Origin: PVC group bacterium
GTDB taxonomy: Bacteria > Omnitrophota > Gorgyraeia > B26-G9
DNA: 64,000 nt
Reading direction: 5' to 3'
Assembly: GCA_024231215.1 (NCBI GenBank)
Contig: JAAEQR010000195.1
Span: forward strand, 142,755 to 206,754
Below are positions 746 through 55,011 of this stretch, in pieces. The notes below the pieces were generated by a model that saw only the letters and a list, made by a program, of their open reading frames with translations, was not told the origin of the DNA and searched no databases. How positions within the stretch are numbered: the stretch's first letter is position 1; each line of letters starts with the position of its first letter. Position numbers and translations under genes: made by a program.

Positions 746-1885
746 ATGACGAAAAGAGACTATTACGAAATATTGGGTGTAAGTAAAACTGCATCAGTGG
801 ATGAGATAAAAAAATCATACCGTAAATTGGCGATGAAATATCATCCGGATCGTGTGTCTGAGGATAAACGTAAAGAAGCAGAAGAACAGTTTAAGGAAAT
901 ATCTGAGTCATATGCAATCTTGTCCGATCAGGATAAGCGTTCAAAATACGATCAATTCGGACATGCCGGAATAAACAATCAATACTCATCAGAAGATATT
1001 TTCCGCGGAACTGATTTTGGTTCGATTTTTGAAGACTTTGGCGGTGGCGGTGGTATTTTTGAAGAACTGTTTTCCGGGTTTGGCGGAGGAGGCGGCAGAA
1101 GGCGCCAAGGACCTAGGCGTGGAGCAGATCTTGAATATCCGCTGAATATAACATTTGAAGAAGCAGCTGTAGGTATAGAGAAGAAGTTTTCCATAAGGCG
1201 CAAAGAAACCTGTAATACATGCAACGGCGAAGGTGCTCAGCCTGGTACAAAGAAAGCTACATGTCTTGTTTGTCAGGGCAGCGGCCAGGTTTCGCAGTCT
1301 GCGGGATTTTTTAGTATTGCCCGCACTTGTGAAAGATGCCGTGGAGAAGGACAGATAATTGAAACGCCATGTAAGACTTGTAGAGGCGGTGGAACTGTTC
1401 CGGTAGATAGAAAAATACAAGTAAAGATTCCTGCAGGTGTAGATAGTGGAGCGCACTTGCGTGTGCGGGGAGAAGGTGAACCTGGCGCAAAAGGCGGACC
1501 TCGCGGAGATCTCTATGTAACTATTCGATTGAAAAAACATGATCTTTTTGAGCGGCATAATAGTGATGTATATTGCAAAGTTCCGGTTAGTTTTGTAAAA
1601 GCAGCTTTAGGCAGTGAAATTGAAGTTCCGACAATATATAAAGAAAAAATAAAGATGAAAGTTCCAGCTGGGACCCAAAGTGGCAAGATGTTTCGTTTGA
1701 GTGGTAAGGGGTTTCCTGATTTGCGCGGATATAATAAAGGAGATGCTTATGTAGTGGTTAATATCTCTGTGCCGACAAAGATCAATGCTCAACAAAAGAA
1801 ATTACTGCTTGAATTCGCCAAGCTAAGCGGAGAAGACGTAACCCAGGGATCATTTACAGAAAAAATTAAGAAGGCTTTTAAGTGA
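746..1885 (+). CDS. dnaJ: Co-chaperone DnaJ (J domain, G/F-rich linker, four CxxCxGxG zinc-finger repeats, C-terminal domain)
   Basis: MTKRDYYEILGV...KKSYRKLAMKYHPDR J-domain with the HPD motif. A Gly/Phe-rich stretch follows, then CNTCNGEG, CLVCQGSG, CERCRGEG, CKTCRGGG. Confidence 0.93.
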   Translation: MTKRDYYEILGVSKTASVDEIKKSYRKLAMKYHPDRVSEDKRKEAEEQFKEISESYAILSDQDKRSKYDQFGHAGINNQYSSEDIFRGTDFGSIFEDFGGGGGIFEELFSGFGGGGGRRRQGPRRGADLEYPLNITFEEAAVGIEKKFSIRRKETCNTCNGEGAQPGTKKATCLVCQGSGQVSQSAGFFSIARTCERCRGEGQIIETPCKTCRGGGTVPVDRKIQVKIPAGVDSGAHLRVRGEGEPGAKGGPRGDLYVTIRLKKHDLFERHNSDVYCKVPVSFVKAALGSEIEVPTIYKEKIKMKVPAGTQSGKMFRLSGKGFPDLRGYNKGDAYVVVNISVPTKINAQQKKLLLEFAKLSGEDVTQGSFTEKIKKAFK

Positions 1886-1975
1886 AGATACAACTTAGGG
1901 GAGTTTTTACGAAAGTAAGTTGTATATTACTATGTGTTAACAAAAACAGAGTCTTTGACATCACAAAAACACGTC

Positions 1976-2081
1976 TTTGCGCTAAGTCCGCAGCGGCATC
2001 GTGCCTTGCGGCCGCGCGTCTCGCCTATTTTTACATCCGTGTAAAAATTACGGCTCAAAGCGCCGCTTAAAGAGAATTTTT
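1976..2081. repeat. Copy A of a roughly 105-nt conserved intergenic element (candidate small RNA / REP-like element), directly 3' of dnaJ
   Basis: cgctaagtccgcagcggcatcgtgccttgcggccgcgcgtctcgcctatttttacatccgtgtaaaaattacggctcaaagcgccgcttaaag...agaattttt aligns at about 75% identity, co-linear, with 54405-54541. Confidence 0.55.
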
Positions 2082-2163
2082 GTGCTATCTATTATTAAGT
2101 TTACTTTGTTAGAATAGTTATGGTTTATCTTTGATTTTTAAATGTATTAACCGGAGGTTAATT

Positions 2164-2915: not shown

Positions 2916-4178
2916 ATGGCTAATATTTCTCCGTTTCGCGGATTACGTTACAACACAAAAAAAATAAAGAATATCAATAAAGTATTTGCACCGCCGTATG
3001 ATGTAATTTCTGAGGCAGAACGAGACAAGCTTTATAAACAGCATTCCAATAATGTGATTAAACTTATTCTCGGTAAGCAGTCTAAAAAAGACACGGTGAA
3101 GAATAATCGTTATACCCGGGCTAAAGCTGATTTTTTCCAGTGGATAGACGATGAAATTATGATTTTCGACGAAAAACCAAGCATTTATGTCTATACACAG
3201 GACTATACCTTTGAAGGTGTAAAGAAAAAAAGAATTGGGTTTGTCTCGTGTTTACGTTTTGACGATAAAGATGAAGGGTGCTTGCCGCATGAGCAGACAT
3301 TAGCTAAGCCAAAAAAAGACAGAATTCAACTGATGCAGTCTGTAGAGGCAAACTTAAGCCCGATATTTTCTTTTTATATTGATAATAAAAATGCGATTGA
3401 TACGGTTTTAAAACCTTATACTAGAAAGAAAGCCCTTATTGACTATACAGATAAAGATAATATTAGACATAAATTCTGGAAAGTAGATGATGTCAAGACG
3501 ATCAGCAAAGTAAAGACTTTAATGAAGGGCAAGCGAGTGTTTATTGCTGACGGTCATCATCGGTATGAAGTATCCCGTTCTTACTATGAGCAAATGCGCA
3601 AAAAATCAAAAGCAGGCAATCATAATCAGGTAATGGTTTACTTTACAGGGTTTAATGAAGAAAATTTGAGTGTTATGCCTACTCATAGGCTGGTAAAAGG
3701 AGTGAAAAACCTTGATGCAAGGATGAAGGATATTGAAAAATACTTTACTAAAACCCCTTGCAAGAACTTAAATGACATGCTTGCCAAGCAAGCAAAGGAG
3801 AAGGGTTTTACATTGGGCATGTGTTTTAAGGGTAAGTTTAATGTATTGACGATGAAAGATAATGTCTTACTTAACCGCTTAATGCGCAAGTCTCCCTCTC
3901 AGTGGAAAAAGCTTGATGTAGCAATGTTAAATAAAGTAGTGTTTGAACATATTTTTAAACTAAACGCTTCTCAAAAAGAAGAGAAGATCAGCTATACTCG
4001 TGATGCTCAGTTTGCGGCAACCGCGGTTAAAAAGAAACTGGCTGATGTGGCCTTTTTCCCTAATCCAACCAAGGCAGACCAGGTGAAAAAGATAGCTTTG
4101 GCTAAATACCGCATGCCTCAAAAATCCACATATTTTTATCCTAAGCCTATAACGGGACTAGTGATACATAAGTTCTAA
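2916..4178 (+). CDS. DUF1015 family protein (conserved, function unknown)
   Basis: N-terminus MANISPFRGLRYN...FAPPYDVIS and DGHHRYE are hallmark DUF1015 motifs. AGGAG RBS upstream. Confidence 0.75.
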   Translation: MANISPFRGLRYNTKKIKNINKVFAPPYDVISEAERDKLYKQHSNNVIKLILGKQSKKDTVKNNRYTRAKADFFQWIDDEIMIFDEKPSIYVYTQDYTFEGVKKKRIGFVSCLRFDDKDEGCLPHEQTLAKPKKDRIQLMQSVEANLSPIFSFYIDNKNAIDTVLKPYTRKKALIDYTDKDNIRHKFWKVDDVKTISKVKTLMKGKRVFIADGHHRYEVSRSYYEQMRKKSKAGNHNQVMVYFTGFNEENLSVMPTHRLVKGVKNLDARMKDIEKYFTKTPCKNLNDMLAKQAKEKGFTLGMCFKGKFNVLTMKDNVLLNRLMRKSPSQWKKLDVAMLNKVVFEHIFKLNASQKEEKISYTRDAQFAATAVKKKLADVAFFPNPTKADQVKKIALAKYRMPQKSTYFYPKPITGLVIHKF

Positions 4179-52198: not shown

Positions 52199-52771
52199 AT
52201 GAATAAAGAAATTTTAAATTTATTTGCTGAAACTGGCTTGCTCAAAAGAGTTAAGAGAACAGGTTGGTGGGTGATCGGGATTAAAGATCCGGAAAGCGTA
52301 GCGGAGCATTCCTTTCGCTGTGCGGTGATCGGGTATGTGCTGGCAAAGATGGAGAAGGCTCAGGTGCATTCTGCGACGATGATGTGTCTTTTTAATGACT
52401 TACATGAGGCTAGGACAAACGATCATCATAAAATGAATATCCGTTATATAGATCATAAAAAAGCGGAAGATAAAGCCTTTAAAGAGCAAGTACAATCTTT
52501 ACCCAAAGGGCTTAAAGACGAGATGTGGGGTTGGCGTACCGAATACACAGGCCAAAAGACAAAAGAAAGTCTTATTGCGCGTGACGCGGATATTTTAGAA
52601 TGTTTAATCCAGGCAAAAGAATATCTGGATCAGGGAGTTCCCCAGGCAAAGTTGTTTTTCCAGAAAGCGCCGAAATTTTTAAAGACAAAAAGTGCTAAAG
52701 CATTATGGAAAAGTTTGCAGAAATGGGATAGTAGTAAGTGGTGGCAGAAAGTTTGCGAGTTCGAGAGATAA
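52199..52771 (+). CDS. HD-domain metal-dependent phosphohydrolase (YfbR-like)
   Basis: ESVAEHSFRCAVIGYVLA...LFNDLHEARTNDHH (H...HD...D arrangement). Confidence 0.55.
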   Translation: MNKEILNLFAETGLLKRVKRTGWWVIGIKDPESVAEHSFRCAVIGYVLAKMEKAQVHSATMMCLFNDLHEARTNDHHKMNIRYIDHKKAEDKAFKEQVQSLPKGLKDEMWGWRTEYTGQKTKESLIARDADILECLIQAKEYLDQGVPQAKLFFQKAPKFLKTKSAKALWKSLQKWDSSKWWQKVCEFER

Positions 52772-53383: not shown

Positions 53384-54367
53384 ATGAACAAACAGGTTAG
53401 GGCCATTGGCCTTTTATCCGGGGGATTAGATAGTATTCTTGCGATTAAAGTTGTTCAACAACAGGGTATAGAAGTCACCGGGCTTTCTTTTGTTACCCCG
53501 TTCTTTAACGCTAACGCTGCTCAAAAAGCAGCGGATCAACTTGGGGTTCCCCTTATTATTAAAGATATTACCGCAGAGCATTTCAAAATAGTTAAAAACC
53601 CACCGCATGGCTATGGCAAAACTATGAATCCCTGTATAGATTGTCATGCTTTAATGGTTAAGATTGCCGGGGGGATAATGCAAGGGGAAGGTTTTGATTT
53701 TATCTTTACCGGAGAAGTTCTTAATGAACGACCTATGTCGCAAAACAGAGCGTCTTTGGAGATCGTGGCCAAAACTTCCGGGTATAAAGAGTACTTGATA
53801 CGTCCTTTAAGCGCGAAATTTTTAAACCAGACAAAGCCGGAGCAAGAAGGAATAGTAGATCACAGTAAATTTTTAGATCTTCAGGGGCGCTCCAGGAAAA
53901 GGCAGATAGCTATGGCTCGGGAGTTTGGGGTAAAAGAGTATCCTAACCCTGCAGGCGGCTGTTTGCTTACAGATAAAGGCTTTTCCAATCGTCTTCGGGA
54001 ATTATTGTCCTACAATGAAGATCCTAGTGTTAGAGAGCTGAGGCTTTTGAGACTTGGACGCCACTTTCGTCTGGCTGATACAGCTAAGTTGATTGTCGGT
54101 AGAAATCAACAAGAGAATGAGGTATTGGAATCCTTATTTGAATCGCAAGGTTATATGATTATGACCGACGATGAGATTTCCGGGCCAACATGTCTATTAA
54201 TCGGAGATAACTTATCTGAGTATTTGGAAAGATGTGCACTTATTTGTGCGGCTTATAGTGATGTGGCACCTGGCATAGAATGTCCGGTGAATATAAAGCA
54301 TGCTAGTAAGGTAAGTAAAACAACTGTGATTACAGATAGATCCCACCGAGAGACAGATAGAATTTAA
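53384..54367 (+). CDS. PP-loop superfamily ATP pyrophosphatase (ThiI/MnmA-like; probable tRNA thiolation or related sulfur/nitrogen transferase)
   Basis: AIGLLSGGLDSILAIKV (SGGxDS PP-loop) and NPCIDCH cysteine motif. 327 aa. Confidence 0.5.
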   Translation: MNKQVRAIGLLSGGLDSILAIKVVQQQGIEVTGLSFVTPFFNANAAQKAADQLGVPLIIKDITAEHFKIVKNPPHGYGKTMNPCIDCHALMVKIAGGIMQGEGFDFIFTGEVLNERPMSQNRASLEIVAKTSGYKEYLIRPLSAKFLNQTKPEQEGIVDHSKFLDLQGRSRKRQIAMAREFGVKEYPNPAGGCLLTDKGFSNRLRELLSYNEDPSVRELRLLRLGRHFRLADTAKLIVGRNQQENEVLESLFESQGYMIMTDDEISGPTCLLIGDNLSEYLERCALICAAYSDVAPGIECPVNIKHASKVSKTTVITDRSHRETDRI

Positions 54368-54400
54368 GAGAACTGTATATAAATAATTCAAAAATCTCTC

Positions 54401-54541
54401 TTTTCGCTAAGCTCGCTACGACTTCCTGTCTTGCGACCGCGCGTTTTCACTATTTTAACATCCTTGTTAAAATTACGTTCAAAAGCGTCGCTTAAACCTT
54501 TAAGGGTTCCACGAGTGTAGCGAAGTGCAAGAGAATTTTTC
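54401..54541. repeat. Copy B of the roughly 105-nt conserved intergenic element (with a roughly 35-nt insertion), 3' of the PP-loop ATPase gene
   Basis: cgctaagctcgctacgacttcctgtcttgcgaccgcgcgttttcactattttaacatccttgttaaaattacgttcaaaagcgtcgcttaaac...gagaattttt, co-linear with 1980-2081. Confidence 0.55.
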
Positions 54542-54574
54542 GATTATTTATCATCGAGTTTTAGGAAAATAAAA

Positions 54575-54604
54575 AAGGGATAGAAGCAAGAGCCTCTATC
54601 CCTT
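54575..54604 (-). terminator. Intrinsic terminator for the minus-strand lipoprotein gene (10-bp stem AAGGGATAGA/TCTATCCCTT; the T-run is on the minus strand)
   Basis: Hairpin read from sequence. The top strand upstream is aaaataaaaaa, which is a U-tract after the hairpin on the minus-strand transcript. Confidence 0.55.
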
Positions 54605-54621
54605 AAAATATATCTTATTAT

Positions 54622-55011
54622 TTATTCGTCATCTTCCATGTCTTCATCGTCGTCCATGTCGTCTTCATCTTCATCATCGACAGATTTTTTCTTGTTTTGG
54701 ATGTACAATTCTGGAAATGCCTGCAATTCTTCGCGTTTTCCCCATTGTGAGACCTGATCATTTAAGAAGTATATTTGATAAGTGGATTTTGATTTCTTAT
54801 CGTAGAATTCCCAGAGATCGAGTAAATTACCTTCAGCATCAACTTTAGAGGCTTTAGCTACAAAGCCGGTCTTGAAAATAGCTCTTACTTCTTCTTTATG
54901 CATGTTGATAGAAAGCTGGTTCATCTTGTCTAACATATTTCCACAACCGACAATGCTAAATACCATAATACTTACTAATAAAATTCCCCAAAATTTATTT
55001 TTTGCTGCCAT
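54622..55011 (-). CDS. Small lipoprotein with an extremely acidic C-terminal tail
   Basis: Signal peptide plus lipobox (SIMVFSIVGCG). C-terminus SVDDEDEDDMDDDEDMEDDE. AAAGGGG RBS on the minus strand. Confidence 0.6.
   Translation of the reverse strand: MAAKNKFWGILLVSIMVFSIVGCGNMLDKMNQLSINMHKEEVRAIFKTGFVAKASKVDAEGNLLDLWEFYDKKSKSTYQIYFLNDQVSQWGKREELQAFPELYIQNKKKSVDDEDEDDMDDDEDMEDDE

Follow-up and report, generated by a model that had tools for sequence, protein, structure and literature searches.

Two similar noncoding stretches in a 64,000-nt piece of an Omnitrophota genome (contig JAAEQR010000195.1; "the window" below means this whole piece) raise the question of why an intergenic sequence should recur behind two unrelated genes, once 3' of dnaJ and once 3' of a PP-loop ATPase gene. 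The original prediction, made from the letters of the window, had offered a structured small RNA, a 3'-untranslated-region (3'-UTR) element or a family of repeats resembling the repetitive extragenic palindromes (REPs) as possible explanations. The two stretches, here called A and B, are very probably two old copies, each diverged on its own, of a non-autonomous interspersed palindromic repeat of about 124 bp that belongs to a clade of Candidatus Omnitrophota. This interpretation follows from the element being multi-copy, intergenic, free in its orientation, bounded, structurally constrained, and absent at the orthologous sites of relatives. It is best read as a new family within a familiar class of small bacterial repeats, akin to paired REP hairpins (REPINs), enterobacterial repetitive intergenic consensus (ERIC) sequences and miniature inverted-repeat transposable elements (MITEs), and not as a gene-specific regulatory RNA.

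Two diverged copies in the window

Both stretches are real and lie where they had been reported, although each is slightly longer than first described. The copies and the genes upstream of them are as follows:

1962..2084 (123 nt), + strand: copy A, the repeat core (nhmmer E = 1.2e-31; covariance model R1, 114.4 bits, model positions 1-123)
54387..54543 (157 nt), + strand: copy B, a more symmetric form (nhmmer E = 1.1e-25; covariance model, 75.3 bits; fold z = -4.25)
746..1885, + strand: dnaJ, the context gene upstream of A (its product matches an NCBI "PVC group bacterium" DnaJ at 100% identity)
53384..54367, + strand: PP-loop ATPase gene, the context gene upstream of B (its orthologues in the relatives L034 and L036 have ThiI/NFACT-R_2 Pfam matches)

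Global alignment of A and B is co-linear, with 92 matches and 31 mismatches over 123 positions (74.8%, the figure of about 75% given earlier), and contains a single extra segment of 34 nt that is found only in B (54495-54528). The shared blocks CTTGCGNCCGCGCGT and ACATCCNTGTNAAAATTACG occur in the window in A and B only, where shuffled sequences predict about 0.05 matches. Neither nhmmer nor an unfiltered covariance-model search found a third copy within the 64 kb, and the next-best covariance-model match, at 16.9 bits and inside an open reading frame (ORF), was judged to be noise. The GC content of the copies (0.50 in A and 0.41 in B) compares with 0.37 for the window. A starts 76 nt past the dnaJ stop codon and B 19 nt past the stop of the PP-loop ATPase gene, each on the same strand as the gene it follows.

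A repeat family in related genomes and metagenomes

Searches beyond the window, of the kind that had been proposed for this element, returned about 70 further copies in related Omnitrophota and in metagenomes. A first pattern, built from 21 bases common to A and B and scanned over one genome per bacterial species, gave 33 matches, all of them in 4 Candidatus Omnitrophota metagenome-assembled genomes (MAGs): JAHITE, JAHITY, JAZDHZ, and JBDRPX. Searching the fetched flanks with nhmmer brought the number to 38 copies at that stage, 35 more came from at least 3 metagenome projects scanned with a second pattern, and covariance model R1 gave 79 matches in all, including a sister family, F2 (E = 1e-9 to 1e-5), which together represent 38 independent sites. 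JAHITE holds at least 17 copies, JAHITY at least 13, and JAZDHZ and JBDRPX 3 each, compared with 2 in the window; these counts per MAG are lower bounds because the scan demanded an exact pattern. Both collection patterns contained the motif ACATCC; one pattern of the element that lacks it is AAAGCGNCGNTNAAAGAGAATTTTT. Two scans of viral contigs found no element, the first giving one chance match in a high-GC phage and the second three bare 25-nt matches with a stem mismatch.

The family consensus is sharply bounded and 124 nt long: GGCAAAAACACATCTTTTCGCTAAGCCTGAGCCTGCATCGTGCAGGCCCAGCCGCGCGTTCTCACTATTTTGACATCCCTGTCAAAATTACGTTCGAAAGCGCCGCTCAAAGAGAATTTTTGCC. A is 81.5% and B 81.9% identical to it. 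Since each copy is thus about 82% identical to the consensus of other genomes but only 75% identical to the other, their divergence is star-like, as would be produced by two copies decaying independently from a master.

The sister family F2, found by the covariance model, is distant from the main family: its terminal repeats (e.g., GGAATCAATTATTT...AAATAATTATTCC) and its stems differ, while the architecture and the central hairpin are the same. Its copies are:

L017, 5679-5799: F2 copy
L005, 5109-5229: F2 copy
L069, 3827-3947: F2 copy
L070, 5570-5693: F2 copy
L083, 928-1047: F2 copy
L041, 2032-2152: F2 copy

An F2 copy often lies 70-140 nt from a main-family copy, and one orthologous site is occupied by a main-family copy in JAHITY and by an F2 copy in the opposite orientation in JAHITE. 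In two variant copies, at L007 (5815-6006) and L008 (9-188), the central hairpin is replaced or interrupted, by about 70-100 nt and about 57-65 nt, respectively. The insert in L007 starts with AAATGAGAGCCTGACTTACGGA, a motif that also adjoins the copy at L002, which suggests the nesting of yet another repeat. A bare 25-nt hairpin, ATTTTNACATCCNTGTNAAAATNAC, occurs with the rest of the element missing on ORF-poor termite-gut metagenome contigs and a few others, including one orthologous locus (L048, L050, L058, L059, L063, L064, and L072) as well as L047/L052, L060, and L081. Such isolated central hairpins lie in ORF-poor or coding DNA and were not accepted as family members; they are probably unrelated or chance matches, though recurring at one conserved locus.

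A full-text literature search found no published account of intergenic repeats in Omnitrophota, and one Omnitrophota genome survey uses none of the terms MITE, palindrome, and intergenic.

An interrupted palindrome maintained by compensatory change

RNAalifold applied to 35 copies and folds of single sequences both yield a single long hairpin with interruptions. As a sequence, the element is a long, imperfect palindrome with four parts: terminal inverted repeats, a GC-rich inner stem (AGC.GCGC.TTC / GAA.GCGC.GCT), a side hairpin in the left arm (hairpin 1), and an AT-rich central hairpin. The consensus terminal repeats, GGCAAAAA-N4-TCTTT ... AAAGA-N3-TTTTTGCC, pair over 8 + 5 bp, and the element end sequence is GGCAAAAACAC. 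The central hairpin has a stem of 9 bp, TATTTTGACA-TCCN-TGTCAAAATTA, with the consensus arms TTTTGACA and TGTCAAAA. In the window copies these parts are located as follows:

1962..1978, + strand: left terminal inverted repeat of A, CACAAAAACACGTCTTT, which pairs with 2069-2084 (read from the sequence)
1988..2011, + strand: side hairpin 1 of A, CCGCAG-C-GGCA TCG TGCC TTGCGG (minimum free energy fold)
2027..2048, + strand: central hairpin of A, ATTTTTACA TCCG TGTAAAAAT, with the minus-strand apex ACACGGAUGU
2069..2084, + strand: right terminal inverted repeat of A, AAAGAGAATTTTTGTG
54413..54436, + strand: side hairpin 1 of B, TCGC TAC GAC TTCCT GTC TT GCGA, with the minus-strand apex GACAGGAAGUC
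54452..54473, + strand: central hairpin of B, ATTTTAACA TCCT TGTTAAAAT, with the minus-strand apex ACAAGGAUGU
54495..54528, + strand: 34-nt segment of B, absent from A and the main family (alignment and fold)

Two features had escaped the original prediction, namely the terminal inverted repeats (CACAAAAAC...TTTTTGTG in A and TTCAAAAAT...ATTTTTCGA in B) and the compensated changes between A and B in the arms of the central hairpin (TTTTTACA/TGTAAAAA versus TTTTAACA/TGTTAAAA). The pairing that it had noticed, between the extra segment of B and the 5' arm, is borne out by the fold: TTCGCTA.GCTCG pairs with CGAGT.TAGCGAA. This segment forms a small hairpin, AACCTTTAAGGGTT, plus the stretch CGAGTGTAGCGAAG that pairs with TTCGCTAAGCTCG of the left arm, making the right arm a mirror of the CGCTAAGCTCG segment in the left arm. 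Because the form with the extra 34 nt is the more symmetric one, A and the main family would seem to have arisen by deletion, as far as fold and alignment can indicate.

Across 53 distinct sequences, 94.2% of the cells are paired, and 28 of the 42 pairs have changes on both sides, so that covariation, which could be assessed once more copies had been collected, is extensive. In 500 column shuffles, no covariation measure came up to its observed value, and sliding the partners by 1 to 3 columns lowers the pairing to 28-46%. These figures come from an alignment fitted to the model, and since the retrieval patterns already required the central hairpin, the invariance of that hairpin is not taken as evidence; the other helices are unaffected. 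The terminal repeats, helices 1 and 2, are 98% paired with compensated changes, and they covary between subfamilies (GGC...GCC, CAC...GTG, and AGC...GCT in L077). In helix 3, the side hairpin, 10 of 11 pairs have double changes, and the stem is wholly different among subfamilies while the loop and the pairing are kept: CTGAGCCTGCA/TGCAGGCTCAG, CTATGACTGCA/TGCAGTCATAG, CCGCAG.GGCA/TGCCTTGCGG in A, TCGC..GAC/GTC..GCGA in B, and GTCCCGC/GCGGGAC and GCATTAC/GTAATGC in F2. In the central stem, one pair is found as G-C, T-A (in A), A-T (in B), or C-G across copies. The fold of the family consensus has a z of about -6.3.

This pattern of change bears on whether the element encodes a protein. A short conserved coding gene, which had been named as the alternative that could explain the similarity, was rejected: no reading frame is kept across copies, five of the six consensus frames contain stops, and the open frame has no start. 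The substitutions track pairing and not codons, and the family tolerates indels of 1 nt between subfamilies, 34 nt in B, and 57 and about 70-100 nt elsewhere. The doubt that had been cast on the ORF at 1882-2070, which overlaps A, was therefore justified.

A dedicated small RNA gene is not supported either, real and covarying as the structure is. Searches of Rfam 15 at gathering and permissive thresholds with the window, A, B, and a consensus copy gave no match, only chance-level hits with E above 0.1, and no consistent promoter or terminator consensus was found in or around A, B, and the consensus copy. The sole good terminator (54575-54604) is that of the convergent gene located downstream of B.

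Placement relative to genes and at orthologous sites

All copies are intergenic, often just 12-50 nt from the adjoining genes, and their neighbors are housekeeping genes such as mur ligases, mraY, ATP synthase, and ABC ATPases; one copy lies between mraY and a mur ligase in a cell-wall cluster, and another follows an ATP synthase subunit. At the 38 independent sites, the + strand of the element runs against the neighboring genes at 21, with them at 11, and in a mixed setting at 6 (binomial p = 0.11), and with local GC skew as the reference the counts are 17 : 21. Both orientations occur within the single loci L007 and L024. We looked for an orientation bias with respect to genes or the replication strand, and none is significant. 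Given the ratio of 11 with, 21 against, and 6 mixed, the same-strand placement of A and B is incidental: a position 3' of dnaJ and of the PP-loop gene is not a property of the family. Of the three options first offered, it is thus the REP-like one that the evidence favors, with dozens of copies at unrelated intergenic sites, while the other two, including a 3'-UTR element as a rule, are not supported.

Two relatives, L034 and L036, keep the gene order hrcA-grpE-dnaK-dnaJ-fmdB-VanZ-DUF1015-HD-greA-PPloop and lack the element at either of the sites that it occupies in the window. In L036 the dnaJ-fmdB spacer is 17 nt long, and the spacers 3' of the PP-loop gene in the relatives are about 70 nt long. 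L034 is part of the MAG JBDRPX, which has the family at other places. Its dnaJ-fmdB spacer contains an unrelated palindrome of about 90 nt (L034 11150-11290; CGGAATTTATCCCGCCCTTTGGG...CCCAAAGGGCGGGATTTAATTC...GGATAAATTCC) that was not seen elsewhere in the roughly 0.7 Mb of sequence surrounding the copies (the surrounding sequence, below), and it seems that hairpin elements have landed in this spacer more than once.

The intergenic regions of JAHITE and JAHITY are mosaics of further short repeated modules that adjoin the element (flanks in L002-L033; for example L033 390-450, L005 4860-4897, and L023 7560-7660), an organization that resembles the bacterial interspersed mosaic elements (BIMEs) of Escherichia coli. 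To the left these modules read TGTCCTAATATAGTTGACA...ATTGCGTCGTGCGTATTG, and to the right CATTGACTATCG..TATTAGCC, CAGCGGATTAGCTATTAGCC, or ATCAGTCAAGCGCTTTTTGC. The window copies are without most of these flanking modules, the exception being a weak CTATCTAT motif on the right side of A.

How the repeat may have spread, and what else it could be

A plausible history is that the repeat spread by transposition from a few master copies, with a folded single strand as the mobilized form, as would be the case for a REP/REPIN-RAYT or an IS200/IS605-like HUH mechanism, although no such enzyme was seen. Given covarying hairpins and the lack of any target-site duplication, this route is likelier than cut-and-paste transposition by a DDE enzyme. 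Several observations nevertheless weigh against a simple account of this kind. In the surrounding sequence we found neither solo ends nor longer elements with the same ends, and tblastn with IS200/IS608-like TnpA queries had no hit there. No transposase-like neighbor recurs, the only recurring ones being Mur ligases, ATP synthase, and ABC ATPases. Wherever an orthologous site was compared between JAHITY and JAHITE, both species have it occupied, and the element is no less conserved there than its flanks (88-99% versus 69-90%). The two copies of one orthologous pair differ in the side hairpin (hairpin 1), where the changes are fully compensated. All of this points to selection at the locus or gene conversion and not to a purely selfish, recently mobile element. 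Nor was a clean pair of filled and empty sites with identical flanks obtained, because the relatives are too distant (the nearest DnaJ relatives are only 75% identical). The two differences in occupancy between JAHITY and JAHITE are block replacements, one with an extra small gene, and so do not define the ends of the element, and many copies have outer flanks that are repeated modules in their turn, which leaves the true ends not fully certain.

The most direct competitor to a repeat moved as a folded single strand is a classical MITE, mobilized in trans by the DDE transposase of an insertion sequence with the same terminal repeats. The covarying terminal inverted repeats of 8 + 5 bp, the small size, the lack of ORFs, and the many copies in both orientations would all suit such an element. 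We nonetheless regard it as unlikely, as no target-site duplication of 2-9 bp was found in 46 distinct copies at any offset from -2 to +5 (the best excess being 10 versus 4, for a dinucleotide), and age does not account for this, since copies with about 95% of their sequence in common are not old. A DDE transposase moreover has no need of internal hairpins that covary, and the surrounding sequence is as devoid of longer elements and solo ends as noted above. Far less credible still is a site for a DNA-binding protein, for instance an operator or a site concerned with the nucleoid or with topology, that would recognize the 20-bp palindrome TTTTGACA-N4-TGTCAAAA. This palindrome is the part common to the main family and the distant F2, and independence of orientation fits a symmetric DNA site, but one of its pairs runs through all four Watson-Crick types, which means that pairing and not sequence is conserved. 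The side hairpin keeps its structure with wholly different stems, something that a protein binding the duplex would not select, and about 100 further bases are conserved with covariation. Two other classes of recombining sequence were rejected. The R''/R' sites of an integron attC (RYYYAAC ... GTTRRRY) are not matched by the ends GGCAAAAAC ... TTTTTGCC, and the copies are dispersed in both orientations among housekeeping neighbors; the template and variable repeats of a diversity-generating retroelement are ruled out by the end sequences, the dispersal, and the mismatch pattern.

The remaining competitor concerns the minus strand, where hairpins with ANGGAN loops might bind a CsrA/RsmA-type protein and regulate the neighboring genes or titrate CsrA, the repeat being kept by the host for that function. 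Read on the minus strand, the central hairpin has the apex ACANGGAUGU in 42 of 53 distinct copies, each of the four bases occurring at N, and the minus-strand loop of hairpin 1 is CAGGAUG or ACAGGAAGU in B, in the JBDRPX copy L019, and in F2 copies, where the repeat of CsrB is CAGGA(U/A/C)G. GGA in this second hairpin is restricted to B, L019, L008, and F2. The CsrA consensus from in vitro selection (SELEX) is RUACARGGAUGU and RsmE recognizes an ANGGAN hexaloop, so that ACANGGAUGU equals the SELEX core and the hexaloop closed by AC/GU (PMC7652899). Among stem mismatches, A.C (equivalent to G.U on the minus strand) accounts for 63 cells (23 events) and G.T for 16 cells (11 events), and the folding energy of the consensus is -57.3 kcal/mol for the minus strand versus -44.7 for the plus strand. 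Finally, the occupied orthologous sites with compensated changes of hairpin 1 in place suggest constraint at the level of the host.

Other observations weigh against this reading. The invariance of GGA is largely by construction, because both retrieval patterns demanded ACATCC; among the roughly 7 copies retrieved without this bias, 6 keep GGA. The loop of hairpin 1 is CGA and not GGA in the main family and in A, and a central stem of 9 bp exceeds that of typical CsrA sites (PMC7652899). The minus strand is co-directional with its neighbors at just 21 of 32 informative sites (p = 0.11), and A and B are both antisense, the wrong orientation for read-through. Folding shows no strand preference for F2 or the window copies, and the tolerance of G.T pairs fits folded single-stranded DNA equally well. 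Neither csrA nor FliW was found by tblastn of the surrounding sequence. A host-kept minus-strand RNA of this kind therefore seems to us quite improbable. More doubtful again, by a little, is a combination of the two ideas, a mobile post-transcriptional module in which the minus-strand ACANGGAUGU hairpin, with a loop of the CAGGAUG type in some subfamilies, is a putative CsrA/RsmA site. If it were true, dispersal would connect intergenic stretches of housekeeping operons with a CsrA-like regulator, or that regulator would be buffered by all copies jointly, in an uncultured phylum, and the conservation across species of both the occupied sites and the fold would be explained as well.

Relation to known small repeats

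Among known systems, the interspersed palindromic repeat preferred here most resembles those that are extragenic and built of hairpins. With the REP/REPIN-RAYT system of Pseudomonas and Escherichia coli it has in common the extragenic location, tens of copies, imperfect palindromes of about 100 nt that form long hairpins, compensatory upkeep of those hairpins, the lack of target-site duplication, both orientations, and persistence at orthologous sites across species. It differs in that its arms are about 45 nt long with extra side and central hairpins, whereas a REPIN consists of two simple REPs of 20-25 nt, and in belonging to another phylum. A 5' motif of the GTAG type was not identified in the element, and the likeness is one of features. 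The hallmark of REPIN-RAYT systems is a single-copy gene for RAYT, a Y1 HUH transposase, flanked by repeats, and no RAYT gene was seen in the surrounding sequence.

The ERIC elements (also called IRU) of Enterobacteria are of nearly the same size, about 127 bp versus about 124 bp, and are likewise imperfect palindromes in intergenic DNA in either orientation, with internal insertions at fixed places, as seen here with 34 nt in B, 57 nt in L008, and about 70-100 nt in L007. The intergenic regions that hold ERIC are transcribed, and no mobilizing enzyme is known for ERIC or was seen here. Their hosts belong to an unrelated phylum, and the likeness is drawn from the literature. The Correia (NEMIS) elements of Neisseria and the RUP and BOX MITEs are also short, noncoding, furnished with terminal inverted repeats, and scattered beside genes. 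Correia-type elements are co-transcribed, and their long RNA hairpins can be processed or can alter expression. They are unlike the Omnitrophota element in having a TA target duplication and promoter and IHF sites at their ends, where neither a duplication nor a promoter consensus was found in ours. The CsrA/RsmA-binding hairpins of CsrB, RsmZ, and the glgC leader share with the minus strand the SELEX core ACANGGAUGU and a GGA loop closed by AC/GU, but the Omnitrophota element is a dispersed repeat with only one or two putative loops and a 9-bp stem.

Read-through of operons would place the interrupted hairpin, of about 35 bp, into messenger RNA, where by analogy with REP, ERIC, and Correia elements it could act as a determinant of processing or stability.

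Surroundings of the two copies

Between A and B lies a block of about 48 kb with about 45 co-directional genes (window 4300-52200), bordered by a DUF1015 gene (2916-4178) and an HD-domain gene (52199-52771). It includes genes for a winged-helix regulator, a PglD-like acetyltransferase, Polysacc_synt_2 dehydratases, an aminotransferase, a cytidylyltransferase, GT2 glycosyltransferases, and a Wza/SLBB exporter, and its GC content drops to 0.32-0.35 over 18-40 kb. Judged by its predicted genes, the block is a lineage-specific polysaccharide or nonulosonic-acid island, lineage-specific because the DUF1015 and HD-domain genes adjoin in L034 and L036. A and B lie about 2.2 kb outside its edges. We considered them as boundaries of the island and rejected this, because three core genes that are conserved in relatives stand between each copy and the edge.

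Other features of the window include a 10-bp hairpin, ATACAACTTA...TAAGTTGTAT, directly 3' of the dnaJ stop and upstream of A (1888-1925), and, between B and the convergent gene at 54622-55011, a terminator-like hairpin of 13 bp that contains GC and is flanked by runs of A and T (54575-54604). GC skew on the + strand is strongly positive, 0.09-0.33 in each 2-kb bin, and nearly all genes are on that strand. No tRNA or other RNA gene at the level of Rfam was found across the 64 kb.

Implications for Omnitrophota genomes

The element is a previously undescribed repeat family, accompanied by a sister family, in the Omnitrophota, a phylum known only from metagenomes. Its recognition removes a false lead, since the copy that follows dnaJ is not a regulator of the chaperone operon, and gene annotation should leave out the 62-aa ORF that overlaps this copy. 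Repeats of this sort fragment assemblies, seed spurious ORFs, and mark variable loci. With its unusually clear covariation and its persistence at orthologous sites, the family may offer a new test case for the putative CsrA hairpin and for the idea, of the REPIN type, of a "resident repeat population."

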